Source of the DNA: an uncultured Gammaproteobacteria bacterium
GTDB lineage: Bacteria; Patescibacteriota; Patescibacteriia; UBA9934; GWF2-40-263
DNA: 50,408 nucleotides
Assembly (NCBI GenBank): GCA_964499955.1
Contig: CAZCMI010000002.1
Span: forward strand, 17,078-67,485
Direction of reading: 5' to 3'
The notes below the pieces were generated by a model. It was not told the DNA's origin, searched no databases, and saw nothing but the letters and a program-made list of their open reading frames with translations. Numbering within the stretch: the stretch's first letter is position 1; each line of letters begins with the position of its first letter. Positions 8,435-50,408 of this stretch are shown one piece after another. A program made the position numbers and the translations under genes.

Positions 8435-11353
8435 ATGTCGTATCCCCGCCCGTCTTCCTCGGACTGGAAGCGGCACGGCCGCAAACAGCTGCGCCTGCCC
8501 AAGAACTGGCTTAAAAACCTGCTGCTGGTGCTGTTGATTTTGGGCGTGGCCGGCACGTTGGGGCTCTTGGGCCTCTTCGCTTACGTCAGCCGGGATCTGC
8601 CGGATCCGAACGCGCTGACCCGCCGCACCATCAAGCAAAGCACCAAGATTTACGACCGCACGGGCGAGCATTTGCTGTACGAAATCCACGGCGACGAAAA
8701 CCGCACCTTGGTAAAAATCCAAGACGGCTTCTGCGACCCCGACTTCACGTCCGAGGGCGAGGGCGGCATTCCCTTGGTCGCCCTGCAAGCCACCATCGCG
8801 GCCGAGGACCGCGCGTTTTGCGACCACGGGGGCTTCACCGTGCGCGGCATCGGGCGCGCCGTGCTCTTCGGCGGCAGCCGCGGGGGCGGGTCCACGCTCA
8901 CCCAGCAGCTGGTGAAAAACGCCATCCTTTCCAACGAACGCACGCTCACCCGCAAGGTGAAGGAACTTATCTTGTCCGTGGAATTGGAACGCCGCTACGC
9001 CAAGGACGAAATCCTGCAGATTTACTTCAACGAAATTCCCTACGGCTCCACGTACTACGGCATCCAGGCCGCCGCCACGAATTTCTTCGGCAAGACGGTG
9101 GACACCCTGACCTTGGCGGAAACGGCCACCCTGGCGGCCATTCCCCAGCTACCGACGTACTACATCAACAACCCGGACCGGCTGAAGATCCGCCGCGACT
9201 GGATTTTGGACAGCATGGCGGAGCTGGAGTTCATTTCCCAAAGCCAGGCGGACGAAGCCAAAGCCCAGGACACGCCGCTGCGCGCGCGCGTCACCAACAT
9301 CCAGGCGCCGCACTTCGTCTTCTACGTCAAAGAATTGCTGGAAACCCAGTTCGGCCAACGACAGGTTGAAGAAGGCGGGCTGCGAGTGGTCACTTCGCTG
9401 GACTACGACCTACAGAAGGCGGCCGAGGAAGCCGTGGTGAACGGCGTAAACGAACGCGGCGAGGCGCACAATTTCACCAACGCCTCCCTCGTGGCGGCCG
9501 ACCCGCACACCGGCCAGATCCTCGCGATGGTGGGGTCCAAGGACTACTTCAACGACGCCATCGCCGGCAAGGTGAACGTGGCGCTGCGCCCGCGCCAGCC
9601 GGGGTCGAGTTTCAAACCCATCGTCTTCGCCCAGGCGTTCGACCTGGGGTACACGCCTAACACCGTGCTGTGGGACGTAAAGACGGACTTCCCCACCGCC
9701 ACCGGCCCGTACAGCCCCAACAACTACGACCTGCGGGAGCGCGGACCCATCCGCATCCGGGAAGTTCTGCAGGGGTCGCTCAACATCCCCGCCGTGCAGA
9801 TGCTGTACATGGTGGGCGTGGAACGGGCGCTCGATTTCGCCGCGTCGCTCGGCTATTCCACCTTCCAAGACCGTTCGCGCTTCGGCCTGGCCATCGTGCT
9901 GGGCGGCGGCGAGGTGCAGCTGCTGGAACACACGCTCGCCTACGGGGCGCTCGGCAACGGCGGACGGCGGTTCGACGCCGCGCCCATTCTGGAAGTGACG
10001 GATCCTGATGGGAACGTCCTGATGGAATGGAAACAGACGGACGGCGACCGCGTGTTGTCTGAAAACGCCTCCCGCATGGTGACGAACGTGCTGACGGACA
10101 ACGCGGCCCGCAGCTATGTCTTCGGCCCGAACAGCTTCCTGCAGCTGGGGAACATTCCCGCGGCGGCGAAGTCCGGCACCACCAACCGCAACTACGACGC
10201 CTGGACCGTCGGGTACGTGCCGTCGCTCGTGACCGGCGTGTGGGTGGGCAACGCCGACAACAGCCGCATGGGGTCGCGGGCGGACGGTTCCGTGGTGGCT
10301 GCCCCCATTTGGAACGCCTTCATGCGCGCGGCTCTGGCCGGCAAGCCGGTGGAATCCTTCCCCGCGCCGGACATTCCGCAGACGGGCAAGCCCGTGCTGG
10401 ACGGCGAGATTCCCAGCACGCGCGTGGTCGTGGACCGGGCGTCCGACAAACTCGCCACGGAATTCACGCCCGCTTCCTACCGCGAGGAACGCTTGTACGC
10501 GGAATACCATTCCCTGCTGCATTACGTAAACCGCGCGGACCCGTTGGGCCCGCCGCCGGAGAACCCGGAGCGCGACCCGCATTACGAGGCGTGGGAAGCC
10601 GCCATCGCCGATTGGATGCGCCGGGAGGAAGAACGCACGGGCATCGTCATTTCTTCCCAGCAGCCGCCGACGGAATACGACGACGTGCACGTCCCCGCCA
10701 ACCAGCCGTCCGTGTTCCTCGCCTTCCCCCAGGCGAACGACACGCTCTTCGACCGCATGCTGGACGTTTCGGCGGACGCGTTCGCTCCGCGCGGCGTCTC
10801 GCGCATGGAATTCTACCTGGGCGGCAAGCTGGTGGGCGTGGATACCTCCGCGCCATATACGCTGCGCGCCACGCTGCCCGGTTCCATTGGGCGGGGCACG
10901 CACACGCTCAAGGTGGTGGCCTACGACGACGTGGACAACGCCGGTTCCGCCAGCGTGAACATCCGCGTGGAAACGGACGCCGAGAGCGCGGGCGCGGACA
11001 TCGTGGACCCGCGCCACGGCCAGAACATCGACGGCACGGAAACGTACATGGTGGCCGTGTCCTTGGACCGGCCGCAACAATACGGCTCCGTGGCTCTGTA
11101 CGCCCAGCGCGTCGGGCAGGCCGAACGCACGTTGGTGGGCCTGCGCCCCGAACCGGATTCCCCGTTCGTCCAGTTTGCCTGGACGTTGCCCATGGAAGGC
11201 GGCGACTGGATCCTGACGGCCACGGCCGAGGGCCGCGACGGCCTGCCGGGCACGGAAACGGCCGGGTACCTGGTCCACGTCCGCGCGCCGCAACCGCAAC
11301 CGTCGTCCGAGGAACCGACGGAAGCACCGCTCAATCCGTTCGCCGTTGAGTAA
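8435..11353 (+). CDS. Class A penicillin-binding protein (glycosyltransferase + transpeptidase) with C-terminal Ig-like extension
   Basis: 972 aa with an N-terminal TM helix. GT51 motifs EDRAFCDHGGF and GGSTLTQQLVKN. Transpeptidase motifs SSFKP, SLN and KSGTT. Confidence 0.9.
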   Translation: MSYPRPSSSDWKRHGRKQLRLPKNWLKNLLLVLLILGVAGTLGLLGLFAYVSRDLPDPNALTRRTIKQSTKIYDRTGEHLLYEIHGDENRTLVKIQDGFCDPDFTSEGEGGIPLVALQATIAAEDRAFCDHGGFTVRGIGRAVLFGGSRGGGSTLTQQLVKNAILSNERTLTRKVKELILSVELERRYAKDEILQIYFNEIPYGSTYYGIQAAATNFFGKTVDTLTLAETATLAAIPQLPTYYINNPDRLKIRRDWILDSMAELEFISQSQADEAKAQDTPLRARVTNIQAPHFVFYVKELLETQFGQRQVEEGGLRVVTSLDYDLQKAAEEAVVNGVNERGEAHNFTNASLVAADPHTGQILAMVGSKDYFNDAIAGKVNVALRPRQPGSSFKPIVFAQAFDLGYTPNTVLWDVKTDFPTATGPYSPNNYDLRERGPIRIREVLQGSLNIPAVQMLYMVGVERALDFAASLGYSTFQDRSRFGLAIVLGGGEVQLLEHTLAYGALGNGGRRFDAAPILEVTDPDGNVLMEWKQTDGDRVLSENASRMVTNVLTDNAARSYVFGPNSFLQLGNIPAAAKSGTTNRNYDAWTVGYVPSLVTGVWVGNADNSRMGSRADGSVVAAPIWNAFMRAALAGKPVESFPAPDIPQTGKPVLDGEIPSTRVVVDRASDKLATEFTPASYREERLYAEYHSLLHYVNRADPLGPPPENPERDPHYEAWEAAIADWMRREEERTGIVISSQQPPTEYDDVHVPANQPSVFLAFPQANDTLFDRMLDVSADAFAPRGVSRMEFYLGGKLVGVDTSAPYTLRATLPGSIGRGTHTLKVVAYDDVDNAGSASVNIRVETDAESAGADIVDPRHGQNIDGTETYMVAVSLDRPQQYGSVALYAQRVGQAERTLVGLRPEPDSPFVQFAWTLPMEGGDWILTATAEGRDGLPGTETAGYLVHVRAPQPQPSSEEPTEAPLNPFAVE

Positions 11354-11948: not shown

Positions 11949-13085
11949 TTACGCCTTGATCGGCATGATGATGTACAGGTACCCCGTCCCGCCGTCTTGG
12001 GCGCGCAAAATGCACGGGTTGGCAGCGTCGATCATCTGCACCTGCACGCGCTCCGTCCCCACGGCGGAGAGGCCGTCGAGCAGGTAGCGGTAGTTCAAGG
12101 TGACCGTGTTTTGCGGGCCGGACACCTCGGCCGCGCACGACGCCGTGTTTTCGCCGCGGTCGGCGTCCACGGACTTCACTTCCAATTTCTTTTCGTCCGG
12201 GTGGAAAGCGAGCGTGACGTCGAACAGCCCGGCGCGGGAGAACAAACTGGCCGTTTTCACCGCCTTGGTGAAGTCGTCGCGGTCCACGACGGCATTGGTT
12301 TGGAATTGCTGCGGGATGATCTGGCGGTAGTCGGGATAATTCCCCTCGATCATGCGCGAAACGATTTCCACGGAACCGTAGGAGAAAACGACCTGGCCCT
12401 CGGACAGCCCGAGCGAAACGGTGGTTGGTGCCTCCACGGAATCGCGGAACACGGACAACACGCGATTCACCTCCGCCAGCGTTTTGGCCGGGATGATGAC
12501 GCGCTGTTCTTCCACTGACTGGCCCGGCAGGTCGATGACGCCTTCCGCCAGGCGATAGGAGTCCGTGGCGGCCAGCACCGCTTCCCCGCCGCCGTCTTTC
12601 TTCCTGAATTCGACGGAGACGCCGGTGAGCTCCGGACGCGCCTCGCTGGTCGAAACCGCGAACAGGACGCGCGAGAGCGTCTCCCGGAAGCCCTCAACGG
12701 GCAACTGGTACACGCGGTCGCCCTGGATTTTCGGCACCAGCGGGAAATCCGCCGCGGACAAGCCGTTGATCTTCGTGCGGTTTCCGCCGCAGGACGCCGC
12801 CAAAGACGCCGCGTCGGCCGAAACGGACACATGTTCGTTCGGTAACAAGGCGACGTAATCGTGGAACAGGCGCGCCGGCACAGTGAATTCTCCCGGTTCG
12901 TCCACTTTTCCGCGCACCACGCAGGAGGTGGCGATTTCCAAGTTCGTGGTGGTCAGACTGATGGTCCCGCCTTCCGCACGGATGAGCACGTTCTGCAAGA
13001 TGGGAAGATTTACGTTTTTCCCCGTTACGTGACTCGCAATGGAAAGTCCCTGGGAAAGATTGTCACGCGTGCACGAGAACTTCAT
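11949..13085 (-). CDS. dnaN: DNA polymerase III beta sliding clamp
   Basis: 378 aa. MKFSCTRDNLSQGLSIASHV...LPILQNVLI is the canonical DnaN N-terminus. It sits directly downstream of dnaA. Confidence 0.92.
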   Translation of the reverse strand: MKFSCTRDNLSQGLSIASHVTGKNVNLPILQNVLIRAEGGTISLTTTNLEIATSCVVRGKVDEPGEFTVPARLFHDYVALLPNEHVSVSADAASLAASCGGNRTKINGLSAADFPLVPKIQGDRVYQLPVEGFRETLSRVLFAVSTSEARPELTGVSVEFRKKDGGGEAVLAATDSYRLAEGVIDLPGQSVEEQRVIIPAKTLAEVNRVLSVFRDSVEAPTTVSLGLSEGQVVFSYGSVEIVSRMIEGNYPDYRQIIPQQFQTNAVVDRDDFTKAVKTASLFSRAGLFDVTLAFHPDEKKLEVKSVDADRGENTASCAAEVSGPQNTVTLNYRYLLDGLSAVGTERVQVQMIDAANPCILRAQDGGTGYLYIIMPIKA

Positions 13086-13352: not shown

Positions 13353-14882
13353 CTAAACCGTGTACAGCCGCTGGCGGATCAGTTCCACGTCATGCTGGAG
13401 CTGTTCGTCCTGCGTGAGGCAGGAGCAAATCTTCCCGTAGGCGTGCATGGCCGTGGTGTGGTCGCGCCCGCCGAGCTCCGCCCCGATGGACGGATAACTC
13501 GACTTCATCTCCTCCCGCATGAGGTACATGATGATTTGCCGCGGGAAAGCGTAGCGCTTTTCCCGGCTCTTCCCGACCAGGTCCTCTATTTGCAGGTCGT
13601 AGTGTTCCGCCACAGTTTGGATGAGCTGCCGCGCGGTGACGGTGCGTTTGGTGTGCGCCGGCTGGAAGCTGGAAAGGATGGGTTTGACCGTATCCAGGGT
13701 GGCCGGGATGTTCTTGAAGTGGTGGAAGGCGATGACCTTGTTGAGCGCGCCTTCCAATTCCCGGATGTTGCTCTGCACCGACGTGGCGACGTGGTGCAGG
13801 ATGTCCCGCGCCATCGGGAAGGATTTTTCCCGGCATTTCGCCTCCAGGATGGCCACGCGGGTTTCGAAGTCCGGCGTGCCGATGTCGGCCATCATGCCGC
13901 TTTCGAAGCGGGAGATGAGGCGGCTTTCCAGGAACGGAATGGCCTTGGGCGGCCGGTCCGCCGTGATGACGAGCTGTTTGTTGTTTTGGTGCAGCTGGTT
14001 GAAGGTGTGGAAGAACTCCTCCTGCGTGCCTTCCTTTCCGGTGAGGAATTGGATGTCGTCCACGAGCAGCAGGTCCACGCTGCGGTAGTAGTTGCGGAAG
14101 TCCCGACCCTGGCCCGTGCGAACCGCGTTGATGAAGTCCGTGGTGAAGCGCTCGCTGGTGACGTAGAGCACGCGGGTGTGCCCGGCGCGGCGCAGGATTT
14201 CGTTGCCGACGGCCTGCAATAGGTGGGTTTTGCCCAAGCCCACGCCGCCGTAGATAAACAGGGGGTTGTAGACGCCGCCGGGTTGGGATGCCACGGCCTG
14301 GGCGGCCGCGTGGGCCAGCTCGTTTTGCTTGCCGACCACGTAGCTGCCGAACGCGTACTTGGCGTTCAGAGTGAATTCCCCGAGGCGGGAGCCGGGCGGC
14401 GGGGCCGCGGGCGGGCTTGCGGGAGCGGGGGCGGCGGCGTTTTGGACGGACGACGGGTTGGTGGGGGCGGATGCGGGCTGGCTGGGTGCCCGTTCCTGTT
14501 CCACGATAACCGTTACGTGCCCCGCGGCGGGGCTTGCCGACGCCGGTTCGTACACGGGCACCGGTTCGGGCGGGGTTTCCGGCAGGACGGTGGCCGGTTC
14601 CGCCTCAACCATGGCGACGGGGGCGGGCGGTTGGCGCGTTTCCACGCGGTAGGTGATGGTCCGGACGTTCTGCTGCGCGTGGGTTTGTAAGGATTGCAGG
14701 ATATCCTTGTGGTATTTCTTTTCCAACCACGCCTTGGTGAACAGGTTGGGAACACCGATAACGACATCGCCGTCGCCGAAGGACGCGATGAAGGTATTGC
14801 GGAACCAGGTCGTAAAATTCGCCTTGCTCAGCGAAAGTTCCAACCCGCCCAGCACCGCCAGCCACAGTTCATGGGTGTTCAT
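13353..14882 (-). CDS. dnaA: Chromosomal replication initiator DnaA
   Basis: AAA+ motifs GGVGLGKTHLL and LLVDDIQFL, and a C-terminal DNA-binding helix region. It has a long P/A-rich domain II. The start could be 14882 (MNTHELW) or 14915. Confidence 0.92.
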   Translation of the reverse strand: MNTHELWLAVLGGLELSLSKANFTTWFRNTFIASFGDGDVVIGVPNLFTKAWLEKKYHKDILQSLQTHAQQNVRTITYRVETRQPPAPVAMVEAEPATVLPETPPEPVPVYEPASASPAAGHVTVIVEQERAPSQPASAPTNPSSVQNAAAPAPASPPAAPPPGSRLGEFTLNAKYAFGSYVVGKQNELAHAAAQAVASQPGGVYNPLFIYGGVGLGKTHLLQAVGNEILRRAGHTRVLYVTSERFTTDFINAVRTGQGRDFRNYYRSVDLLLVDDIQFLTGKEGTQEEFFHTFNQLHQNNKQLVITADRPPKAIPFLESRLISRFESGMMADIGTPDFETRVAILEAKCREKSFPMARDILHHVATSVQSNIRELEGALNKVIAFHHFKNIPATLDTVKPILSSFQPAHTKRTVTARQLIQTVAEHYDLQIEDLVGKSREKRYAFPRQIIMYLMREEMKSSYPSIGAELGGRDHTTAMHAYGKICSCLTQDEQLQHDVELIRQRLYTV

Positions 14883-14952
14883 ACCGCGGACGACGTCAAA
14901 AAAGAGATGCCCCATTCCCGGAAAACGGGAAGGAACGATTGGCGATGGCGCT

Positions 14953-41876: not shown

Positions 41877-41952
41877 GGGCCGATAGCTCAGTTGGTAGAG
41901 CGCTGCATTCGCATTGCAGAGGTCTGGGGTTCGACTCCCCATCGGTCCACCA
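41877..41952 (+). tRNA. tRNA-Ala (CGC)
   Basis: Acceptor GGGCCGA/TCGGTCC with the G3:U70 pair, anticodon arm CTGCA-TTCGCAT-TGCAG, T arm TGGGG-TTCGACT-CCCCA, encoded CCA. Confidence 0.9.
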
Positions 41953-41986
41953 AAAGAACACCCAATTTCGGGTGTTCTTTTGTTTT
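41953..41986 (+). terminator. Intrinsic terminator after tRNA-Ala
   Basis: AGAACACCC aatttc GGGTGTTCT TTTGTTTT. Confidence 0.8.
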
Positions 41987-42478: not shown

Positions 42479-42507
42479 TTCAGGAACCTTCTTGCACATG
42501 GTATGAT
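42479..42507 (+). promoter_or_regulatory. Extended -10 promoter of the surface locus
   Basis: TTCAGG, a 17-nt spacer, then TGgTATGAT (TG at 42499-42500, TATGAT at 42502-42507). It is followed by an AGGAGG SD (42519-42524) and the ATG at 42529. Confidence 0.5.
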
Positions 42508-42528
42508 GTGGGGTGAATAGGAGGACCT

Positions 42529-43440
42529 ATGCGCGTTGTTGCTCTCATTTGCGCGTTTGTAGCCGGTTTGTTCGGCTGGGTTTCGTTTGGGCGGGCGGAA
42601 ATGAACTCCGCCAACTACATGATTCGGTGGGACAGCATCGGATCCGGAGGAGGCGACACAGCCGCGTCCGCAAGCTTTCTTCTGCGGGACACCGTGGGGA
42701 ATCTTGGCGTGGGGGCGGGCGCGTCCGAGACGTATTTCCTTCAATCCGGGTACCGAGCAGGAGTGCTAGATCAGTTCGTTTCGTTTGATGTTTTCGCGCA
42801 AGTGAGCGCGTCGGCCGTGGCGGCGACCGCGCGGACGGGTGAGACAGTCACGGTCGCCTCCGCCGCGGGGTTCGGCGTCGGGGACTATCTCGCGCTGGTG
42901 CAGGATCGCGGTGCGTCCCAGGTTTCCGCCGTCGGGCGCATCGTTTCCATTGTGGGCAACCAGGTGACGGTGGACCAGTTTGCAGACAACGGCACGTCGC
43001 CGGTGATCGACGGAACAAACGATTATGCGTATCGCCTTGCGGGCGTGGCGGCGAATTTGGGAACGCTGAGCACGTCGGAGGTCGCGACGGCCCTGATCGG
43101 TTTTGAGGTGACGGCCGACGTGGACGGCGGATATACGGTTTTCGTGGCGGAAGACGGCGGTTTGCGCAGCGGGCCGGAGGAAATCAACAAGGTGTCGGAC
43201 GGCGCCGTGACGGCCGGATCGGAAGAATATGGCGGCCAGTCGTCGGATACGGCGGTCACCGGCTCCACGTTCGGCACGCAAGACACGGCGTTCACGATGG
43301 TACTTCAACCGATCGTTGAATACGGGTCGAACGCGTTCCAGCGCCGCGATTTTCTGACGTTGAAAGCCGCGATTTCGTCCTCAACCCCGAATGCCACGTA
43401 CAGCCACGTCCTGTCCATGATTTTTGTGCCGAATTTCTGA
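42529..43440 (+). CDS. Secreted protein (303 aa), first gene of the surface locus
   Basis: Signal peptide MRVVALICAFVAGLFGWVSFGRA. Duplicated S-x-x-Y/F-x-L...G motifs (SANYMIRWDSIGSGGG, SASFLLRDTVGNLG, SETYFLQSGY). The mature part is Cys-free and G/T/S/V-rich. Confidence 0.7.
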   Translation: MRVVALICAFVAGLFGWVSFGRAEMNSANYMIRWDSIGSGGGDTAASASFLLRDTVGNLGVGAGASETYFLQSGYRAGVLDQFVSFDVFAQVSASAVAATARTGETVTVASAAGFGVGDYLALVQDRGASQVSAVGRIVSIVGNQVTVDQFADNGTSPVIDGTNDYAYRLAGVAANLGTLSTSEVATALIGFEVTADVDGGYTVFVAEDGGLRSGPEEINKVSDGAVTAGSEEYGGQSSDTAVTGSTFGTQDTAFTMVLQPIVEYGSNAFQRRDFLTLKAAISSSTPNATYSHVLSMIFVPNF

Positions 43441-43444
43441 CCTT

Positions 43445-44374
43445 ATGCGCCGCTTCGCCTCCCTCTTTCTCGCCTTGTTCCTGACGGTTGTTCCAGCCGC
43501 CGCGTCCGCGTTTTCCGTTTCTCCCGGCACGGCGGACCTGCGTTTGGAGGCGGGGCAGGGCGACACGCGCGAACTCGTGCTGACGAACACGTCCCCGCAG
43601 GCGGAAACGTATTACCTGCGCACGGTGCCGTTCCAGGTGGAAGAAGGCGCCGCGGGCCCTGTTTTCGGCGGGGAAGACCCGTTGGGGGTGGCGGGTTGGC
43701 TTCGTGTGCCGCCGTCCGTGCGGGTGGAAGCGGGCGCCCGGGAAACGGTTTCCGTGCAGGTGGCCGTTCCGCCGGCCGTTCCGCCGGGCGGGTATTATGC
43801 GGCCGTCCTGGTTTCCCCCACGCCGTCCGAGGTCGTGGCTGTGGCGGGCGGCGCAGGCGTTCAGGCGACCATCGCCGTCCCGTTCTATCTTGCGGTGGGC
43901 GGCATGGGCGTCGAGCGCGTGGGTCTGCTTTCTTTCGGCCCGACCGATGGCAAACAGGTAACGGACGGGTTGTGGGGCTTCTATGAATTCCAGCTGCAAA
44001 ACCAAGGGACCGTGCACGTCGTGCCCGAAGGATCCATCACGGTCCGCGACGTCTTCGGCCGCCGCATGGCCGAAGGCCCCGCGAACCCGAAGGAATTACG
44101 GATCATGCCGGGGCAAACCCGCGCGTTTTCGGAAGGCTTGGTATTGGAGCGGCCACCGACGTTTTGGGACGTCGTGAAGGCACAAGGGCGGTATTTCGCG
44201 CTTGGACCCGTCACGGTGGAGTTGGCCTTGGAACAGGGGCCGACGCCCGAGCAGCCGGTCAACGCCTCGTACCGGTTGTGGGTGTTGCCATGGCAGCTGG
44301 CGGCCGTGGTTGTGGGCGGCGTGGCCGTCCTGTACGGCGTGTTGCGTCTTCTGACGCGCCGCCACCCCGTTTGA
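43445..44374 (+). CDS. Signal-peptide protein with two Ig/PapD-like modules and a C-terminal TM anchor (DUF916/DUF3324-like architecture)
   Basis: Trimmed to MRRFASLFLALFL. FSVSPGTADLRLEAGQGDTRELVLTNTSPQAETYYL is a chaperone-like beta-sandwich pattern. The C-terminal TM helix is WQLAAVVVGGVAVLYGVLRLL, followed by RRH. Confidence 0.65.
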   Translation: MRRFASLFLALFLTVVPAAASAFSVSPGTADLRLEAGQGDTRELVLTNTSPQAETYYLRTVPFQVEEGAAGPVFGGEDPLGVAGWLRVPPSVRVEAGARETVSVQVAVPPAVPPGGYYAAVLVSPTPSEVVAVAGGAGVQATIAVPFYLAVGGMGVERVGLLSFGPTDGKQVTDGLWGFYEFQLQNQGTVHVVPEGSITVRDVFGRRMAEGPANPKELRIMPGQTRAFSEGLVLERPPTFWDVVKAQGRYFALGPVTVELALEQGPTPEQPVNASYRLWVLPWQLAAVVVGGVAVLYGVLRLLTRRHPV

Positions 44375-44436
44375 CGGCGGGGGACGGCCGGTCCGCGCCG
44401 CGGGCCCGCGCGTCCTCCTCCGCCAAAGGAGGAACT

Positions 44437-47400
44437 ATGCGTTTTCGGTTCGTTCGCGCGTTTTTTGCTTTCTTAATCACGGCCTTCGCCTTGGGGGGCG
44501 GGGCTGTTTCGGCGTTTGCGGCAACCGTCACGTCCGCCAACATCTTTCTCAGTACACAGCAAGCAGGACAGGCGGCGAATTATACCTTCGTCTTCACGAC
44601 GCCTTCGGGCGCGGACGAAGGGGACACAATCCAGTTGATCTTCAACGATTCGTTCGGCAGCGCTCCCGGTCCCATCACGGGAGATGACGTAGACGTTTCC
44701 GTTGGAGGAAGTCCGCTTATAACTGCGACATCTACCTGTGGGGGGTTGGAGCAGGTGGGCATATTTATCACGCCGAATGTTCTCACGGTGGAGATTTGTG
44801 TTGGTAACGGCGGCGCCATTGCGCCGGGCAGCGAGGTGGCCATCCGCATTGGCACGCATGCCGTAGATTTCGGCACCGGTTTGAACCAACTCATCAATCC
44901 GTCCACCCCTGGCAACTATTACGTCGCCCTGGACGGCACGTTCGGCGACAGTGGGACGTATATTCTCACCATCGGCGGGGATGACGGTGTGTCCGTGTCC
45001 GCCACGGTGACAGGCAATGAACCACCCCCCGTCGGTTGTCCGCCGAATTGCGGTGGTGGAGGCCCGCCCCCGGAACCGCCGCCCCCGGATACGACCCCTC
45101 CCATCATTTCCAACGTCGTCGTTTCGAACGTCACCGCCACGTCCGCCCAGCTTTCCTTTACGACCAGCCAACCCGCCCGTTCCGACATCCAGTACGGCAC
45201 GAGCACCGCGTACGGCCAAACCTACGCGGAAACCGGTTTTACCGAATCCCACAGCGTTCCGTTGGTCGGATTGCTGGAAGGGACGACCTACCACGTCCAC
45301 ATCACCGCCACCAACTTCAACGGCTACAGCGGGGTGAGCGGCGACTTCACGTTCACCACGTTGGACGAAACCCCGCCGGTCCTTTCGGAGATCGTCGTAA
45401 CGGACATTACGGAAACGTCCGCCCGCGTGACGTGGACGACGAACGAACCCGCCACGTCGGCGGTGGATTTCGACACAAGCGACGCCTACGGCCAAACCGT
45501 TTCCTCCGGCGCGCTGGTGACCGCGCACGACGTGCTGCTCACCGGGCTCACGCATTCCACGCTCTACCACTTCCGCGTCCGTTCCAGCGACGCCGCGTCC
45601 AACGAAACCGTTTCGGCGGACGGAACGTTCAACACGACGGCGAACCTGCCGCCGGGCAACGTGGCCAACCTTGCGGCCGTGGCGGGGAACCAGCGTGTGT
45701 CGTTGGCGTGGACAAACCCGCCGGACGCCGATTTGGAAGCCGTGCGCGTGGTGGCCTGCACGGGCGGTCCGCCGTCCGGTCCGTTGGATACCGAAGGATG
45801 CGCGGTGGTCTTCGACGCCTTGGGCGAAGCGTTCGAGCATGAAGGCCTGACCAACGGCACCGCCTATCATTACGGCGTGTTCGCGCGCGACGCAGCCGAC
45901 CAGTATGCGTCCGGCGCTTTGGCCCAGGCCACTCCCATGGGCCCCGACTTGCCGCCGGGTTCGGTGACCGGCCTGTCTATTGCCCCGGGAAACCAGCAGC
46001 TCACGTTGTCATGGACGAATCCGTTGGACGAAGACCTGGCTGCCATTCGCGTCGTCGTCTGTACGGCCGGGTTCCCGCCCGATCCGGTGAACGCGCCCGG
46101 GTGTTCCGTCGCCTTCACGGGATTGGACACGTCCTTCGCGCATAGCGGGTTGGTGAACGACCAAACGTACTATTACGGCGTGTACGCCATGGATGTGGCC
46201 GGCCAATTCTCCGGTGGTGCCTTCGGGTCCGGCACGCCCAGGGAATTCATCGTGGACGAACCGCCCCCGCCGGTTTCGGCGTTTACGGCCGCTTCGGGGG
46301 ACGGCGAAGTACGCCTTTCTTGGATCAATCCCACGGACGAAGACCTGGAAGCCGTGCGCCTCATTTCCTGCACGGGCCGGTTTCCCGGTTCTCCCGCGGA
46401 CGTGGGCGGGCCGTGCGTCCTGCTGTTCGACGGATTCGGCACCGCGTACATCCACGCGGGACTCACGAACGGCCAAACGTATTATTACGGCATCTACGCC
46501 CGCGACGCCGCCAGCCAGTATTCCACGGGCGCGTTCCGTTCCGCCGTGCCGTCGGCCTTGGCGCCCGTCTGCGGCGACAACATGTGCAACGGGGACGAAA
46601 CGGCGTTTTCCTGCCCGTTGGACTGTGGCGCGCCGCCCATCATGTGCGGCAACAATATCTGCGAATTGGGTGAGACGGCGCAATCCTGCCCCGCGGACTG
46701 CGGCTTCATCCCCACCTGCGGCAATGCCATGTGCGAAGAAGGGGAAACGGCCCTGACCTGTCCGTCGGACTGCGCGGCGGAACTACCCCCACCCACTACC
46801 GTGGAGCCGGACCACCGGGTGGATTTGTCCGACACCCGCATGTCCGTGGCCGAGAGGACCGTCCTGCAACCACCGTTCGACGGCGGATTCGACCTGCTCA
46901 CCGGCACGCCCGGCGTGTTCGAAATTCCAGCTTCCGTGTTGGCTGGGCCGTTGGAGCGCGCCCAGCTCGTTATCGGCCAGCAGACCTATGTCCTGGCGCC
47001 ACGCACGGCGGCGGACGGCACCGTCACGTACCAGGCGTCCATTCCGTTCCCGGCCGTTCCCGGGCTGATCGCGTCTTCCCTGCGCCTCTTCTATGAGGAC
47101 GGCACCACCCAGACCGTGCCGTTCGTTTCGCGCGTGCGCGGATTCGGCCAGGTGCATGAGATTTGGGAAGGCGAACGCCTGCCGGTCGCCGGCGCCACCG
47201 TCACCTTGTTGGTGGGCACTTCGGGGAACACGGCGTGGGACGCCGCGCGTTTCGGCCAGGAAAACCCGCGCCTGACCGGTTCGTCGGGGACGTTCGCGTG
47301 GTATGTGCCGAGCGGGACGTACCGCATCCGCGCGGAAAAAGAAGGGTATCGGACGGAAACTGTGCGTGTGGACGCGGCGAACCACATCGCCGCCGCGGAC

Positions 47401-48435
47401 ATCCGCCTGCGCCGCGAGCAGCCCTTTATCCCCACCGTCATCGAGGCCATCCAGGACATCGGCACCGCCGTTGAGGAAATCCGCCAGAGTCCGGCCGCGC
47501 AGGAAAGCGCGGTGATTGCCGCGCCCGTGGTGGCGACCGTCGCCGTGGCCAGCACGGCTTCCCTGGTTGCCGGCTTCGGCCTCGTCCAGTACCTGCAGTT
47601 CATCACCACGGCCCCGGTGTTGTTCTTCGCGCGCCGCCGCCGCAAGGGCTTCGGCGTTGTCTACAACGCCTACACCAAGATGCCGGTGGACCTGGCCATC
47701 GTGCGCCTCTACCGCATGGACGAAACCAAACCGGACGCGCCCGGCCGGCTGGTGGCCAGCCGCGTGACGGACAAGGGCGGCCGCTATTTCTTCCTCGCCC
47801 AGCCGGGGCTGTACCGCCTGACGGCCACCAAGCCCGGCTTCTCCTTCCCGTCCGCTTACCTGGCGGGTAAGAAGGACGACGGTCTGTTCCTGGACGTCTA
47901 CCACGCCGAGCCCATCCGTGTGACGGAGGCCTCGGCCACCATCGCCGCCAACTTGCCGATGGATCCGGTTGCCGGCGGGGCGGAACCGCGCCAAATCATT
48001 TGGAAACGCCGCTTCCGCCGCGCGCAAAGCGCCGCCGCCTTCCTCGGCAACATCGTGGCGGTGGGCGTGTTGATCGTGCGGCCCAGCATGTTCACGGCCG
48101 CCCTGGCCGTGGGCCAGCTGATCGTGTACGCCCTGGTCCGCCGCCTCGCCGCCCCGAAAAAACCCAAGAGCTGGGGCATCGTCTACGATTCGGCGACGGG
48201 TCGCCCGCTATCCCAGGTGATCGCCCGCGTGCTCGAACCCACCTACAACAAAGTGTTGGAAACCACCGTGACGGACACTCGCGGCCGCTTCACCTTCCTG
48301 CTCGGCCCCAACGAGTATTACGCCGTCTTCCAAAAGCCCGGCTTCGAACAGGCGGAACTGCGCCCCATCGACTTCACGAAGAACGCGGAACCGAAGGAAG
48401 TGTCTGCCAAGATCCAAGTGAAGCGCGCGCCGTGA
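44437..48435 (+). CDS. Giant multi-domain surface protein (1332 aa)
   Basis: Trimmed to MRFRFVRAFFAFLITAF (AAAGGAGG SD). It has a signal peptide, 2 FN3-like domains, 3 repeats of about 104 aa, 3 Cys-rich mini-repeats, CarboxypepD_reg-like domains (GTYRIRAEKEGY, GLYRLTATKPGF, NEYYAVFQKPGF) and interleaved TM helices. Confidence 0.8.
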   Translation: MRFRFVRAFFAFLITAFALGGGAVSAFAATVTSANIFLSTQQAGQAANYTFVFTTPSGADEGDTIQLIFNDSFGSAPGPITGDDVDVSVGGSPLITATSTCGGLEQVGIFITPNVLTVEICVGNGGAIAPGSEVAIRIGTHAVDFGTGLNQLINPSTPGNYYVALDGTFGDSGTYILTIGGDDGVSVSATVTGNEPPPVGCPPNCGGGGPPPEPPPPDTTPPIISNVVVSNVTATSAQLSFTTSQPARSDIQYGTSTAYGQTYAETGFTESHSVPLVGLLEGTTYHVHITATNFNGYSGVSGDFTFTTLDETPPVLSEIVVTDITETSARVTWTTNEPATSAVDFDTSDAYGQTVSSGALVTAHDVLLTGLTHSTLYHFRVRSSDAASNETVSADGTFNTTANLPPGNVANLAAVAGNQRVSLAWTNPPDADLEAVRVVACTGGPPSGPLDTEGCAVVFDALGEAFEHEGLTNGTAYHYGVFARDAADQYASGALAQATPMGPDLPPGSVTGLSIAPGNQQLTLSWTNPLDEDLAAIRVVVCTAGFPPDPVNAPGCSVAFTGLDTSFAHSGLVNDQTYYYGVYAMDVAGQFSGGAFGSGTPREFIVDEPPPPVSAFTAASGDGEVRLSWINPTDEDLEAVRLISCTGRFPGSPADVGGPCVLLFDGFGTAYIHAGLTNGQTYYYGIYARDAASQYSTGAFRSAVPSALAPVCGDNMCNGDETAFSCPLDCGAPPIMCGNNICELGETAQSCPADCGFIPTCGNAMCEEGETALTCPSDCAAELPPPTTVEPDHRVDLSDTRMSVAERTVLQPPFDGGFDLLTGTPGVFEIPASVLAGPLERAQLVIGQQTYVLAPRTAADGTVTYQASIPFPAVPGLIASSLRLFYEDGTTQTVPFVSRVRGFGQVHEIWEGERLPVAGATVTLLVGTSGNTAWDAARFGQENPRLTGSSGTFAWYVPSGTYRIRAEKEGYRTETVRVDAANHIAAADIRLRREQPFIPTVIEAIQDIGTAVEEIRQSPAAQESAVIAAPVVATVAVASTASLVAGFGLVQYLQFITTAPVLFFARRRRKGFGVVYNAYTKMPVDLAIVRLYRMDETKPDAPGRLVASRVTDKGGRYFFLAQPGLYRLTATKPGFSFPSAYLAGKKDDGLFLDVYHAEPIRVTEASATIAANLPMDPVAGGAEPRQIIWKRRFRRAQSAAAFLGNIVAVGVLIVRPSMFTAALAVGQLIVYALVRRLAAPKKPKSWGIVYDSATGRPLSQVIARVLEPTYNKVLETTVTDTRGRFTFLLGPNEYYAVFQKPGFEQAELRPIDFTKNAEPKEVSAKIQVKRAP
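45643..46563 (+). repeat. Three tandem ~102-104-aa coding repeats inside the giant protein
   Basis: Units start at 45643, 45949 and 46261. Each reads LPPG-V--L-A--G---V-L-W-NP-D-DL-AVR...C.....P....GC...F......H-GLTNG-TY-YG-YA-D. Confidence 0.8.
46570..46773 (+). repeat. Three tandem Cys-rich mini-repeats (CG-N-C--GET---CP-DC)
   Basis: CGDNMCNGDETAFSCPLDCG / CGNNICELGETAQSCPADCG / CGNAMCEEGETALTCPSDC. Confidence 0.8.
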
Positions 48436-48468
48436 TACAATGGGGCGGTAATGACTTTGAGATGACGT

Positions 48469-50408
48469 ATGTCGTTTTGGTCGTGGGGTAAAAATCGGCC
48501 GCTCTACGCCGCATGTTTTTTCGCGGCGTTGGCGTTATTCGTACTCCCATTTATTTCTCCATCCGCCGCCACGCCCGCTTCCGTCCTCACGTACCAAGGC
48601 CGGTTGTTGGATGCCAACGGCGTGCCCGTGGCAGACGGGACCGCGGACATGGAATTCTCCCTGCATACCGAGCCAACCGACGGCGTGTGTTTGTGGGCCA
48701 ACGCGGACGATACCTGCGCCGCCAACACACCCCGTTCCGTCCCCTTGTCCCAAGGGTTATTTTCCCAAGACCTCGGCCGCGTTTCCGACGGGTTCGCCGC
48801 CATCGGCACCAGCGTGTTTGCCGACAATGCCGCGGTATATCTCCAGGTCGTCGTGAACGGGGAACCGCTGCTGCCGCGCCGCCTGCTGACGGCCGCGCCG
48901 TACGCCTTGAACGCCGCCACGCTGCAGGGCCTGGCCGCCACGGACTTCCTGTCGGTGTCGGGAGGCATCGCGACCGGTTCGTATACGTTCGCGCTGGGGG
49001 AAGCGGAGGTTTTCCAGATCGACGCCGCGTCGGTGCCGCACAGCGCGTCCATTCCCGCCTTCGCGCTGCATTACCAGCCGCTCTTTGAGTCGGGATTGTT
49101 GTCCGCCTCCGTTCTGACATTGACGTCTCCCGCCACCGGCATATCGGACGAGTCGGTTCTCGCGGGCCATTTAACCACCTTGAACGGTGACGACGATGAC
49201 ACGGACGACGGGATATTGGTCGGACACCTCGTACAGATGGGAAATGCGCTTGGAAGCGCGGAACGCCTTGGTTTCGTTGTTGATTTTTCAGGCGTTACCG
49301 GCGGAACGACGTTGGACGACCAGTATGGCGTCGGGTTCTTAGCCGACATGACCGTGATTGGCGGTGGAGAGGCTTCCGCCTTCCACGCCGAATTATCCGG
49401 CCAGGACACCGACGCTTCCCTTGTCGGCCTCGAGGTGAACATTGCCGACATGGTTGCGGGCGCGGATGTGCGCGGTGTGTACGCGCAGCAGGCATCCGGG
49501 GTGCCGGGTGGAACCGGGGTAGACGTGTCTGGCACATGGGATGCCGGTCTTCTCTTTAACGGCGCTATCGGCACCGACATTACGACCGCACCCGACCGCA
49601 ACCTGACCATCATGCCCGGTGGGACGGGGCAGGTGGTTGTCGGTTCCGGCATCCTGCCGTCCGCGGACAACGCCTATGATTTGGGCAGTTCTTCGTTCCG
49701 CTGGCAGGACCTGTACCTCGGCCCGGCCTCGCTGCATATCGCCTCCTTGACCACGGACGGCGCGGGCTATCTTGATACGTCTTGGCGCCTGGGCATTGCC
49801 GACGACGGGTTCGGCAGCTTCCAGGTACAAAACGGGGAAACCGCCGCCTTGTCCGTCGACCTGGCCGGCCAAGTTGCCTTTGGCGGGGACGTGGCCGTGG
49901 CGGGCACGCTGCGCCCGGCCGCCGCTATGGACGCGCCGGACGTTCTGATGGATACGTTTATTGATGGCTTCGGCGGTATGCATGGTGTCGAAACGTTTTC
50001 CGTCGCCAAGGATCCGACGGATGACTTTCCCGCTATTGCCTATGTCCATTACGACGGGGATGTTGGTGCATACACATTGCGTTACGTTAAATGTTTGGAC
50101 GCCGCCTGCGCAGCCTTTACGGGGCCAGTCATCGTTGATGGGGCGGATGAACAGGTGAATTTCAACTTTGTTTCAATGACTTTTGCAGGAACAACTCCTG
50201 TGATTGCGTATTTCACGGATTCAAATGACTTAAAGGTTGCCGCCTGGGTGGGTGGATCATCCGGTACATGCGCTGCCACCGGTGGTTCCGACGCGTGGGA
50301 TTGCCACGTTGTTGATAACGGAATAAGCCCATCTCTTGTGGCGATCGCCGCGGATCCGTCCATAAACGGCGGTCAACCCATTCTTGCGGTTGGAACCAGC
50401 GTGGGGTT
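48469..50408 (+). CDS. Large secreted protein, 3'-truncated by window edge (at least 646 aa)
   Basis: Not in the track because it has no stop. It starts at the ATG at 48469: MSFWSWGKNRPLYAACFFAALALFVLPFISPSAA (signal peptide). It contains NAYDLGSSSFRWQDLYLG, and later repeated P-(V/A)-IAY beta-strand-like units. Confidence 0.7.
   Translation, partial: MSFWSWGKNRPLYAACFFAALALFVLPFISPSAATPASVLTYQGRLLDANGVPVADGTADMEFSLHTEPTDGVCLWANADDTCAANTPRSVPLSQGLFSQDLGRVSDGFAAIGTSVFADNAAVYLQVVVNGEPLLPRRLLTAAPYALNAATLQGLAATDFLSVSGGIATGSYTFALGEAEVFQIDAASVPHSASIPAFALHYQPLFESGLLSASVLTLTSPATGISDESVLAGHLTTLNGDDDDTDDGILVGHLVQMGNALGSAERLGFVVDFSGVTGGTTLDDQYGVGFLADMTVIGGGEASAFHAELSGQDTDASLVGLEVNIADMVAGADVRGVYAQQASGVPGGTGVDVSGTWDAGLLFNGAIGTDITTAPDRNLTIMPGGTGQVVVGSGILPSADNAYDLGSSSFRWQDLYLGPASLHIASLTTDGAGYLDTSWRLGIADDGFGSFQVQNGETAALSVDLAGQVAFGGDVAVAGTLRPAAAMDAPDVLMDTFIDGFGGMHGVETFSVAKDPTDDFPAIAYVHYDGDVGAYTLRYVKCLDAACAAFTGPVIVDGADEQVNFNFVSMTFAGTTPVIAYFTDSNDLKVAAWVGGSSGTCAATGGSDAWDCHVVDNGISPSLVAIAADPSINGGQPILAVGTSVG

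Follow-up and report, generated by a model that had tools for sequence, protein, structure and literature searches.

Four adjacent genes at the downstream end of the window (the whole 50,408-nucleotide stretch analysed) raise the question of whether they jointly build a surface structure and, if so, of what kind. A preliminary description, made from the sequence alone, had read them as a chaperone-plus-subunit system. To the extent that sequences and fold predictions can show, this reading is supported by the fold of g2, the kinship of g1 with Pam pilins and synteny. The earlier judgement that the system is not a textbook one also agrees with our results: the only described relative of the locus is the Pam pilus system of Ca. 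Mycosynbacter amalyticus (Saccharimonadia), which was described in 2026 (Troman et al., bioRxiv 10.64898/2026.03.03.709456).

Organization and conservation of the locus

The four genes (g1-g2-g3-g4) lie on the same strand with gaps of 4, 62 and 33 nt, as previously stated. The reading frames of g1, g2 and g3 end in TGA stop codons, and that of g4 is open at the window end. The principal features are as follows.

41951-41982, + strand: intrinsic-terminator-like hairpin (13-bp stem and T run), directly 3' of tRNA-Ala
42499-42507, + strand: extended -10 element TGGTATGAT (TGgTATGAT), read directly
42519-42524, + strand: AGGAGG Shine-Dalgarno sequence, 4 nt before the g1 ATG
42529-43440, + strand: g1, 303 aa, ATG at 42529
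43445-44374, + strand: g2, 309 aa counted from ATG
44437-48435, + strand: g3, 1332 aa counted from MRFRF
48469-50408 (window end), + strand: g4, 646 codons with no stop reached, hence at least 646 aa

The hairpin closes the upstream tRNA unit and marks the upstream boundary of the g1–g4 transcription unit. The 546-nt leader before g1 is AT-rich (40% GC versus ~63% for the window) and includes the extended -10 element, which had been reported together with the AGGAGG. A sigma-70 consensus scan found no full -35/-10 pair, so the promoter call for g1–g4 depends solely on the extended -10. Because the gaps are short and no strong internal terminator was found within g1–g4, the four genes are compatible with one operon. 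A TTG at 43424, overlapping g1, is a possible alternative start for g2. Hydropathy analysis places a hydrophobic, signal-like segment at the N terminus of all four products, in keeping with the signal peptides assigned to them earlier. We detected no LPXTG signal at the locus and no sign of a sortase, an usher or a type IV pilin, again as described before, and the locus proteins have no Pfam PapD_N/C or fimbrial matches.

Comparison of gene order in relatives, a check proposed in the preliminary description, showed that the g1-g2-g3-g4 order recurs at ~15 loci from Uhrbacteria, Magasanikbacteria and other CPR lineages (some Patescibacteria), between which the locus proteins are just 25-55% identical. 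Module variants are present in Kerfeldbacteria and Peregrinibacteria. The locus is flanked by holA, rpsT, rmuC and tRNAs, a chromosomal context that relatives keep, and no other phage-like genes were found near it. Since the order is kept across many independent genomes, the association of the four genes reflects more than chance.

The pilin-like g1 and the chaperone-like g2

The domains of g1 and the membrane segment of g2 are located as follows.

42601-42768, + strand: conserved N-terminal extension of g1 (aa 25-80), from alignment conservation; predicted disordered in the monomer
42778-43023, + strand: inserted small beta domain of g1 (aa 84-165), from alignment; missing from PamT-like relatives of 200-230 aa
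43024-43437, + strand: C-terminal pilin-type beta domain of g1 (aa 166-303); NF058581 aligns with aa 173-255
44291-44356, + strand: C-terminal membrane helix of g2 (aa 283-304), one segment, from hydropathy and AF2

We compared g1 with Pam proteins through the NCBIfam models NF058579 (PamT) and NF058581 (Pam pilin C domain). It matches the former at E 4.6e-13 (49 bits; curated cut-off 240 bits) and the latter at E 1.8e-4 (22 bits; curated cut-off 55 bits). Within the g1 family, NF058579 is matched by 59 of 60 members (best E 3.9e-18) and NF058581 by 50 of 60 (best E 8.1e-13), all below the curated cut-offs. Of 30 relatives tabulated singly, none reaches either cut-off. Scores so far below the cut-offs count against a pilus-like reading. 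By homology, g1 is a distant relative of the CPR pilus proteins PamT and Pam-pilin-C and a predicted PamT-like pilin or cap subunit, and its relatives of 200-230 aa show the PamT architecture.

The AF2 model of g1 (mean pLDDT 83.7) has a confident beta core (pLDDT >95), and residues 19-71 fall below 50 in the monomer. The N-terminal extension carries three copies (aa 27, 47 and 66) of an S-x-x-Y/F-x-L/I strand motif that had previously been recognized as a duplication, and aa 25-80 may serve as an intermolecular strand or for docking. The inserted domain weakly resembles part of 9n71, a tail tube protein of phage Mystique (E 1.1e-3 with Foldseek and 0.029 in a profile search). The hallmark V-x-D-G-A-V-T-A-G-S-E-E-Y-G lies at aa 222-235. 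Foldseek matches of g1 are weak (E >=1e-3, TM 0.4-0.5), which also counts against a pilus-like reading, and most are to chaperone-usher pilins (PapG pilin domain, CfaB, FimG, CsuA/B, PapA), with TasA in addition. The single Cys of g1 lies inside the signal peptide, so its earlier designation as Cys-free applies to the mature protein only.

Behind its signal peptide, the g2 product has two Ig-like domains of beta-sandwich type and, at the C terminus, a TM helix (AF2 mean pLDDT 85.1). A profile built from 22 family sequences matches E. faecium WxLIP1 (EfmWxLIP1) in the PDB at E 9e-9, and a profile of just 7 close orthologues still does so at E 5.9e-5; no other protein of solved structure matches g2 significantly in sequence. 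The best Foldseek match is likewise WxLIP (E 3.9e-12), for which a complex with WxL has been deposited (PDB 9i25). RbmA and other generic tandem-Ig proteins rank ahead of the chaperone-usher chaperones CfaA, EcpB, CsuC, Caf1M and FaeE (E ~1e-8 to 1e-7, target TM-scores 0.39-0.56). The structural comparison that had been suggested for g2 therefore finds WxLIP first and chaperone-usher chaperones further down, and it bears out the DUF916/DUF3324-like and PapD-like resemblances noted from the sequence. The single C-terminal TM anchor noted earlier is present as well. The Pfam family PF06030 (WxLIP_PGBD) is matched by 4 of the 22 family members, with g2 itself below the Pfam threshold, and no NCBIfam model matches g2. 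Together, the profile and fold matches point to a DUF916/DUF3324-type protein of PapD fold and a putative membrane-tethered chaperone. Published work casts WxLIP as a host-binding protein and surface scaffold, not as a chaperone, which counts against the chaperone reading of g2; the same work predicts that a hairpin strand of WxLIP inserts into the partner protein (Hassan et al. 2023, PMC10599100).

The anchored g3 and the fibre-like g4

The two long proteins contain the following segments.

44521-45015, + strand: pilin-type N-terminal domain of g3 (aa 29-193), from BLASTP, a jackhmmer family, orthologue alignment and the L031 pilin layout
45103-46551, + strand: five FN3-type repeats of g3 (aa 223-705), from Pfam and DNA repeat period
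46570-46773, + strand: three Cys-rich repeats of g3, CG-x-x-x-C-x-x-GE-x(5)-CP-x-DC (aa 712-779), read directly
47506-48387, + strand: best conserved part of g3 (aa 1024-1317), from Pfam and hydropathy
48571-48933, + strand: conserved N-terminal domain of g4 (aa 35-155), from orthologue conservation and a Bdello_MAT_N match
49669-49722, + strand: NAYDLGSSSFRWQDLYLG in the variable fibre region of g4 (aa 401-418)

The 1332-aa g3 is predicted to be a giant membrane-anchored stalk protein; it has orthologues at ~15 loci and Pfam matches to fn3, Pur_ac_phosph_N and CarboxypepD_reg. Its N-terminal domain (NTD) matches, at a BLASTP E of 6e-10, the NTD of the pilin-like protein P0108, whose two domains are arranged as NTD-linker-CTD, and a jackhmmer family agrees. 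The locus of P0108, L031, has a pam-like layout: next to P0108 are another two-domain pilin, a homologue of g2 (E 2.4e-42) and a small Ig-plus-TM protein. The pilin-type domain of g3 is closed by the amphipathic strand DDGVSVSATVTG (aa 182-193), a candidate donor strand, which is followed by a Pro/Gly linker (aa 196-222); the protein thus presents a pilin-type NTD and an amphipathic linker strand without an acceptor domain. Two of the FN3-type repeats are purple-acid-phosphatase-N-like, and the other three are ~100 aa each, with a DNA period of 303-309 nt. The conserved C-terminal region opens with a hydrophobic segment (1024-1067); two CarboxypepD_reg-like domains follow, one on either side of a TM hairpin (1197-1237). 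This region is 62% identical to locus L003 and 48-57% to other loci. Arg/Lys clusters border its TM segments. The predicted topology of this multi-pass region is odd, with beta-sandwich domains apparently cytoplasmic, which counts against a pilus-like reading. The preliminary description had mentioned neither the pilin-type domain at the start of g3 nor the multi-pass anchor, nor the third copy of the g1 motif.

The g4 product starts with a signal or anchor segment, and its N-terminal domain matches Bdello_MAT_N (NF053851) at E 9e-7, scoring 28.8 bits with a cut-off of 60 bits. Its orthologues range from 1120 to 2016 aa; their N termini and last 650 aa are conserved, and the middle varies. The motif NAYDLGSSSFRWQDLYLG, previously likened to tail-fibre proteins, is present as reported, and the proposed link is weakly supported: aa 382-420 match three tail fibre/spike PHROGs at E 1e-3 to 6.5e-3. 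One 30-aa tblastn match of g4 lies in a marine virus. In the PHROG scan, which covered g1 and g4, no matches were found for g1 or for two g4 orthologues (L003 and L021).

Assembly model, alternatives and known systems

We propose, at a probability of roughly 0.6, that this ultra-small, monoderm CPR bacterium uses the locus to make a donor-strand surface appendage that is assembled with a chaperone and without an usher and is related to Pam pili but built differently. Its parts would be a pilin-like cap (g1), a tethered chaperone-like protein (g2), a giant stalk (g3) and a long fibre (g4), most likely used for gripping a host cell. All four proteins would be exported by Sec, judging only from their signal-peptide-like N termini. 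Held at the membrane by its C-terminal helix, g2 would insert a beta strand into the incomplete Ig-like C-terminal domain of g1, as its fold, the WxLIP homology and the PamC/PamD model suggest. Domain homology points to the next step, in which the multi-pass C-terminal region would anchor g3, ~1000 residues of FN3 and Cys-rich repeats would project outward, and the distal pilin-type NTD with its linker strand (VSVSATV) would displace the g2 strand in the g1 groove. Because g3 has no acceptor domain, it would terminate the chain at the membrane and so unite a rod and a PamR-like anchor in one polypeptide. More speculatively, the variable middle of g4 would supply host-binding specificity, and g4 might dock on the triple-strand N-terminal extension of g1. 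Provided that the general model holds, a 1:1 cap-on-stalk arrangement of g1 and g3 has slightly better than even odds, and a g1 homopolymer formed through the N-terminal extension falls a little short of even. Neither the locus nor the rest of the 50-kb window contains a two-domain major pilin, so a Pam-type polymeric rod is not encoded here, which counts against the model.

The WxLIP homology also invites comparison with a WxL/Csc-type cell-surface complex. In such a complex g2, as a lasting membrane-anchored scaffold comparable to WxLIP/CscA, would keep g1 and g4 at the surface through non-covalent contacts, g3 would act separately as an anchor, and neither a chaperone cycle nor donor-strand exchange would occur. 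EfmWxLIP1 as the sole significant solved relative of g2, WxLIP as its top Foldseek match and the PF06030 matches in 4 of 22 family members fit such a complex, and so does a layout like that of cscA-D, with one TM-anchored DUF916 protein, one small secreted, one large secreted and one anchored protein (PMC10599100). However, Pfam searches at E up to 1 found no WxL domain in g1, g3 or g4, and no dual W-x-L motif was seen; g1 matches Pam pilin models instead, g3 has a pilin-type NTD, and the g2 homologues in L031 adjoin two-domain pilin-like genes. The clusters analysed in the published survey, moreover, come from Lactobacillales and Listeria (PMC10599100). We regard this complex as unlikely.

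Far less probable is that the genes are merely adjacent and encode four unrelated, independently acting exoproteins. Internal promoters could fit in the 62-nt and 33-nt gaps, but the same order at ~15 loci across Uhrbacteria, Magasanikbacteria and other Patescibacteria despite 25-55% identity, the module variants in Kerfeldbacteria and Peregrinibacteria and the failure to find a strong internal terminator all speak against it, and synteny already disfavours the idea. We give the least credence to a prophage remnant or a structure derived from a phage tail, in which g4 would be the tail fibre and g1 would be associated with the tail: the PHROG matches of g4, its short marine virus match and the resemblance of the g1 insert to 9n71 are set against conserved holA, rpsT, rmuC and tRNA surroundings with no other phage-like genes nearby, the lack of PHROG matches for g1 and for two g4 orthologues (L003 and L021), and Sec signal-like N termini on all four products.

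Among known systems, the Bdellovibrio mosaic adhesive trimer (MAT) fibres and phage tail fibres resemble g4: its N-terminal domain weakly matches NF053851, it is a long fibre whose ends are conserved and whose middle is variable and mosaic, and it has a short tail-fibre-like motif. Unlike either, g4 sits inside a pilin and chaperone operon, and its NF053851 score is below the cut-off (28.8 versus 60 bits). Chaperone-usher systems offer chaperones whose fold g2 resembles (CfaA, EcpB, CsuC and Caf1M, target TM-scores 0.42-0.56), pilins that the C-terminal domain of g1 resembles, and in PapH a similar logic of a terminator-like subunit with a donor strand and no acceptor. They differ in that our locus has no usher, no outer membrane and no Pfam PapD_N/C or fimbrial match, its chaperone-like g2 is membrane-tethered, and its candidate donor strand comes after a large N-terminal domain. 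With WxLIP (DUF916/DUF3324, CscA; PDB 9i1y and 9i25), known from WxL/Csc surface clusters of Lactobacillales (Hassan et al. 2023, PMC10599100), g2 shares profile homology (E 9e-9), its best fold match and the order of signal peptide, two Ig-like domains and C-terminal TM helix; strand insertion into a partner is predicted for WxLIP, and both reside in small clusters containing one small and one large secreted protein. In contrast, g2 belongs to another phylum and falls below the PF06030 threshold, and its partners are pilin-like, with no WxL-domain partners.

The Pam system and the locus are alike in being CPR-specific, usher-less and Sec-exported, the last judged for our locus from the signal-like N termini. 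Homology of g1 to PamT and the Pam pilin C domain is detectable, and g2, likened by architecture as described, has the layout reported for PamC and PamD, PapD-like proteins with a pair of Ig domains and a TM helix at the C terminus (10.64898/2026.03.03.709456). Both g3 and PamR are membrane-anchored, contain FnIII domains and carry a candidate donor strand, and a tail-fibre-like gene, reported as a conserved neighbour of pam (10.64898/2026.03.03.709456), is part of both neighbourhoods. The two nevertheless diverge. The g1 scores lie far below the curated cut-offs; the lineage, by named homologues, is of Uhrbacteria/ABY1 type, whereas Pam is reported in Saccharimonadia and Microgenomatia; one chaperone (g2) stands in place of two; and g1 has an extra inserted domain and is Cys-free when mature, whereas PamA and PamB have paired Cys. 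The two-domain major pilins PamA/B/E are missing; in their place, g3 joins a pilin NTD and linker to a multi-pass anchor in a 1332-aa chain. The novelty with respect to Pam pili would be the replacement of a polymeric rod by a single-polypeptide stalk, g3.

A conserved four-gene chromosomal module

All four genes proposed in the preliminary description are confirmed on the window sequence at the positions assigned to them:

42529–43440, + strand: g1, PamT-like subunit, 303 aa
43445–44374, + strand: g2, WxLIP-like putative chaperone, 309 aa
44437–48435, + strand: g3, candidate giant anchored stalk, 1332 aa
48469 to the window end, + strand: g4, candidate long fibre, 646 codons, ORF still open

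The intergenic gaps are 4 nt (g1/g2), 62 nt (g2/g3) and 33 nt (g3/g4), and a terminator scan found no convincing terminator within the locus. A strong terminator lies at 41951–41982, 3′ of a tRNA-Ala gene, and the 546-nt leader has a GC content of 40%, compared with ~63% for the window. The g1 ATG is preceded by TGGTATGAT, an extended −10 element, and then by AGGAGG; a sigma-70 consensus scan found no full −35/−10 promoter. An Rfam scan returned only tRNAs, and a DNA repeat search only the FN3 coding repeats of g3. Hydropathy analysis places a signal-peptide-like hydrophobic segment at the N terminus of all four products, predicting Sec export as in Pam, the pilus system of Ca. Mycosynbacter amalyticus. 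Because exact look-ups of g1–g3 (6.6-kb and 1.8-kb fragments of the same assembly) gave no sequence 3′ of g4, the end of that gene was inferred from its orthologues.

We identified ~100 relatives of g1 at 33–57% identity; the few that are named belong to Candidatus Uhrbacteria or "Patescibacteria group", bar one entry labelled Actinobacteria. Scanning one genome per GTDB species with the pattern DGAVTAGSE yielded 19 loci from Uhrbacteria, Magasanikiibacteriota, Kerfeldbacteria, Peregrinibacteria and other Patescibacteria. These are ABY1-type, Peregrinibacteria and other Patescibacteria loci only, with no true PamT/Pam operon found by this pattern. Conservation of gene order in related genomes had been proposed as a check, and BLAST of all ORFs from 29 fetched loci shows that the order g1–g2–g3–g4 recurs in ~15 independent loci, with protein identities of 25–55%. 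The genes upstream of the locus are housekeeping genes (holA, rpsT, rmuC and tRNAs) that are partly kept in relatives. Given the recurring order and these partly conserved flanks, the four genes are a conserved chromosomal module rather than chance neighbours or parts of a mobile element. Many MAG records carrying this CPR (Patescibacteria)-type module (loci L011–L013, L018, L019, L022–L025, L027 and L028) are titled "uncultured Gammaproteobacteria bacterium", which on these TPA assemblies looks like a placeholder or mislabel.

The module varies among relatives. In locus L016 (3–17056), two g2 paralogues are adjacent, recalling the paired PamC and PamD of the Pam system, and a 3083-aa protein has a C-terminal g1-type domain. 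In L020 (2567–11567) and L014 (8144–12467), giant proteins likewise carry a g1-type domain at the extreme C terminus; the giants of these three loci span 748–3083 aa, and their terminal pilin domain is arranged as in a tip adhesin. L017 encodes a 439-aa protein bearing the g3 N-terminal domain. A fifth gene, encoding ~770 aa with 11–13 TM segments and C-terminal TPRs, accompanies the module in seven loci, directly upstream of g1 or directly downstream of g4:

L003: 20527 onward
L012: 9949–12006
L013: 803–3115
L017: 4871–7348
L018: 7637–9952
L019: 2–2263
L023: 7686–9980

It lies downstream in L003, the nearest of the relatives whose g4 is complete, and in this genome would fall past the 3′ end of the window. 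Our guess is that its product glycosylates or otherwise processes surface proteins.

Elsewhere in the window, dnaN (11949–13085) and dnaA (13353–14915), both on the minus strand, adjoin genes for a class A PBP (8435–11353) and NifU/NifS, at ~8–16 kb. Because dnaA and dnaN lie there and the cumulative GC skew reaches its minimum at ~10–12 kb, the chromosomal replication origin is probably inside the window, ~27 kb from the locus. Directly 5′ of the tRNA-Cys and PBP genes, ~7411–7851 (+ strand) encodes a 146-aa protein with baeRF_family12 and Host_attach (PF10116) matches.

The pilin-like subunit and its putative chaperone

In Pam pilins, a beta sandwich at the N terminus is joined to a truncated Ig-like C-terminal domain (CTD) by a linker strand, which each subunit donates to the following one, and PamT is a single-domain tip subunit; the system has no usher (bioRxiv 10.64898/2026.03.03.709456). 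No Pfam match was found for g1. It matches two models derived from these pili (same preprint), namely CPR_pilus_PamT (NF058579; E 4.6e-13, 49.1 bits, below the 240-bit equivalog cut-off) and CPR_Pam_pilin_C (NF058581; E 1.8e-4, 21.6 bits, below the 55-bit cut-off). The PamT model is matched by 59 of 60 g1 family members (best E 3.9e-18) and the pilin C domain model by 50 of 60 (best E 8.1e-13). Thirty individually tabulated relatives score 20–72 bits on the PamT model, with three giving no match, and none of the 30 reaches the NCBIfam cut-offs; the best g1 relative on NF058581 scores 48.7 bits, under the 55-bit cut-off. The homology to the Pam pilin models is significant, yet these scores place g1 outside the curated family. 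An exhaustive profile search with short PamT-like relatives as the query (E up to 1e-3) showed that the family comprises at least 2,542 clusters at 50% identity; the best 150 of these 2,542 all fall in one non-canonical clade, and 20 further members scanned one by one lie below the NCBIfam cut-offs. The clusters include proteins of 1263–2757 aa with the g1-type domain at the C terminus, mirroring the pilin domain placement of two-domain tip adhesins. Judged by these profile comparisons, the g1-type clade is a sister of the curated Pam families rather than a member.

Alignment with relatives of 200–230 aa shows that g1 combines a PamT-like architecture with an inserted domain of ~80 aa (aa 84–165), and its hallmark motif is V-x-DGAVTAGSEEYG. 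The protein had been characterized as Cys-free with a duplicated S-x-x-Y/F-x-L motif; it contains one Cys, within the signal peptide, and three copies of the motif, at aa 27, 47 and 66. An AF2 model from a 60-sequence alignment (mean pLDDT 83.7) has a very confident beta core at aa 80–303 and pLDDT below 50 at aa 19–71. Few parts of g1 are as well conserved as this N-terminal segment, and its conservation together with low pLDDT is the pattern expected if folding needs a partner. Foldseek against the PDB gave weak matches (best E 1e-3), mostly to chaperone–usher pilins (PapG pilin domain, CfaB, FimG, CsuA/B, PapA and FimA) and also to TasA; the Pam structures 25PZ and 25QA are absent among the PDB sequence and fold matches. 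The insert (window 42778–43023) resembles a segment of the Acinetobacter phage Mystique tail tube protein (9n71; Foldseek E 1.1e-3, profile–sequence E 0.029), with a readable alignment near TVTV-S-GL-VGD. We also considered a WxL-domain relationship of the g1 C-terminal domain, which was dropped: among the 50 best matches of g1 in Foldseek there is no WxL chain (the partner in 9i25).

The AF2 model of g2, built from 22 sequences (mean pLDDT 85.1), shows two beta-sandwich domains between a signal peptide and a C-terminal helix (283–304), in line with the single TM segment that closes the protein. Its top Foldseek match is the Enterococcus faecium WxLIP (9i25_C and 9i1y; E 3.9e-12), followed by RbmA and then by the chaperone–usher chaperones CfaA, EcpB, CsuC, Caf1M, FaeE and YadV (E about 1e-8 to 1e-7, target TM-scores 0.39–0.56), consistent with a predicted PapD-like fold. 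The g2 family profile matches EfmWxLIP1, a WxLIP of E. faecium, at E 9e-9, and at E 5.9e-5 when built from seven close orthologues alone; with the single g2 sequence, WxLIP1 is the best match but is non-significant. PF06030 (WxLIP_PGBD, formerly DUF916) matches 4 of 22 g2 relatives (best E 2.1e-5) and not g2 itself. By profile, fold and PF06030 evidence, the likeness of g2 to DUF916/DUF3324 proteins noted in the preliminary description is therefore supported. WxLIP is reported to bind WxL proteins through an inserted hairpin strand (PMC10599100). PamC and PamD are described as PapD/FimC-like chaperones that end in a TM helix (bioRxiv 10.64898/2026.03.03.709456), and g2, with its two domains, matches that description in architecture and fold only.

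Two loci place g2 homologues in other settings. The 4.5-kb contig of L031 (3–3798) encodes two tandem two-domain pilin-like proteins (N-terminal domain (NTD), TVDPSITFT linker and CTD), followed by a g2 homologue that ends in a TM segment (E 2.4e-42) and then a 265-aa protein with a signal peptide, a Big_1/Invasin Ig domain and a TM segment, forming a compact operon with a pam-like layout. A 339-aa g2 homologue is encoded in the divergent module of L008 (hhalign probability 99.8%).

The candidate anchor and fibre

The N-terminal part of g3 consists of a signal peptide, a domain of ~165 aa and a Pro/Gly linker. It is followed by two FN3/purple-acid-phosphatase-N-like domains, three more FN3-like repeats, three Cys-rich repeats, a CarboxypepD_reg/PEGA-like domain, a hydrophobic stretch (1024–1067), a CarboxypepD_reg domain, a TM hairpin (1197–1237) and a second CarboxypepD_reg domain. 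The NTD is homologous to that of P0108, a two-domain pilin-like protein of L031 (BLASTP E 6e-10; jackhmmer) whose C-terminal half is Pam-pilin-C-like. It terminates in a conserved amphipathic strand, DDGVSVSATV, with V-V-A-V on one face and a flexible linker directly after, and this strand occupies the inter-domain linker position of two-domain pilins. With this NTD and strand and no acceptor domain, g3 thus reads, at the sequence level, as the donor half of a pilin only. By analogy with PapH and PamR, such a donor-only layout would suit a protein that ends the chain and anchors it. Conservation of g3 is highest over its last 330 aa, where identity reaches 62%. Because Arg/Lys clusters lie on their side of the bracketing TM segments, the two C-terminal beta-sandwich domains (within aa 1024–1317, window 47506–48387) are suggested to face the cytoplasm; a cytoplasmic location is unusual for CarboxypepD_reg-like domains.

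The g4 product has a conserved N-terminal domain of ~130 aa (36–55% identity in closer loci, 31–32% in L008/L011) that weakly matches Bdello_MAT_N (NF053851) at E 9e-7 and 28.8 bits, under the 60-bit cut-off. Orthologues of 1120–2016 aa or longer have a variable middle, a conserved C-terminal region (~650 aa) and a tail rich in Pro, Thr, Ser and Glu. The fragment in the window covers the N terminus and variable part. One orthologue has YadA-head repeats, and that of L008/L011 (13915–19023), a secreted giant fibre protein, contains an intein/Hint domain at residues ~603–927 (PF14890, E 2.7e-21; TIGR01443, intein C-terminal, 41.9 bits, above the cut-off). The g4 proteins are mosaic in nature. 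No g1-type domain was found in g4-type proteins, and PDB sequence searches returned nothing for g4 or for either terminus of g3.

A possible assembly mechanism and its relation to known systems

CPR bacteria depend on attachment to host cells, and to our knowledge almost nothing is known of the means of attachment in most of their classes. Beyond the lineage of Pam, CPR groups such as Uhrbacteria, Magasanikbacteria, Kerfeldbacteria and Peregrinibacteria widely carry a related module. It combines a pilin-type acceptor domain with a putative two-Ig chaperone tethered to the membrane, an anchor bearing a pilin NTD and a variable fibre, the last being a candidate host-range determinant. The 50-kb window contains no further g1-like or CTD-bearing ORF, hence no two-domain major pilin, and the pilin NTD with its linker is confined to the start of g3; a polymeric rod appears to be lacking in this version. 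We propose that g2, at the membrane, would insert a strand into the C-terminal domain of g1 and so chaperone it, that the g3 linker strand would then complete g1, and that g3 would serve as stalk and anchor. The specificity-bearing adhesin would be g4, which may dock on the triple-strand extension at the N terminus of g1. A further-reaching, tentative reading, to which we assign a probability of about 0.3, would be a pilus without a polymer, in which a membrane-tethered WxLIP-type chaperone catalyses donor-strand exchange and a PamT-like adaptor is thereby clipped onto the tip of a single giant stalk, with a phage-tail-fibre-like adhesin attached through the adaptor. If true, Pam pili of CPR bacteria and WxL/Csc surface complexes of Firmicutes would be linked by the chaperone family, implying that a single ancient system of assembly by strand complementation spans monoderm bacteria. 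The tie of g2 to WxLIP proteins, which belong to WxL clusters of Gram-positive bacteria, also yields a testable hypothesis on the role of WxLIP.

The main rival is a static WxL-like surface complex. A WxL/Csc cluster is expected to encode at least two WxL-domain proteins, and neither a WxL domain (Pfam, E up to 1) nor dual W-x-L motifs were found in g1, g3 or g4. A phage remnant would account for the weak matches of the g4 motif NAYDLGSSSFRWQDLYLG to three tail fibre/spike PHROGs, along with one 30-aa phage match; this motif is absent from all four complete orthologues examined (L003, L012, L018 and L021), and the reading is poorly supported. So is the view that the genes are unrelated neighbours, given an order that recurs across lineages.

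Among established systems, the usher, sortase and type IV pilin readings were rejected, with no signature of any. The four products have no C-terminal LPXTG and no sortase domain (Pfam), and resemblance to chaperone–usher systems is at the fold level only, with no PapD_N/PapD_C Pfam match. The locus belongs to a kind described solely in a 2026 preprint, which first reported the Pam pilus, from one cultivated Saccharimonadia species, and in which WxL and DUF916, and hence the WxLIP link, go unmentioned (bioRxiv 10.64898/2026.03.03.709456). PamR of that system is a TM-anchored FnIII protein (bioRxiv 10.64898/2026.03.03.709456) with a donor strand, and it ends and anchors the filament; g3, with its FN3 domains, TM segments and candidate strand, may resemble it, but has 1332 aa and is multi-pass. 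The present locus differs from Pam in its occurrence in other CPR lineages, in failing the curated thresholds and in its parts list: in place of a major pilin, it has a giant multi-pass anchor to which the pilin NTD is fused, together with one putative chaperone and a fibre.
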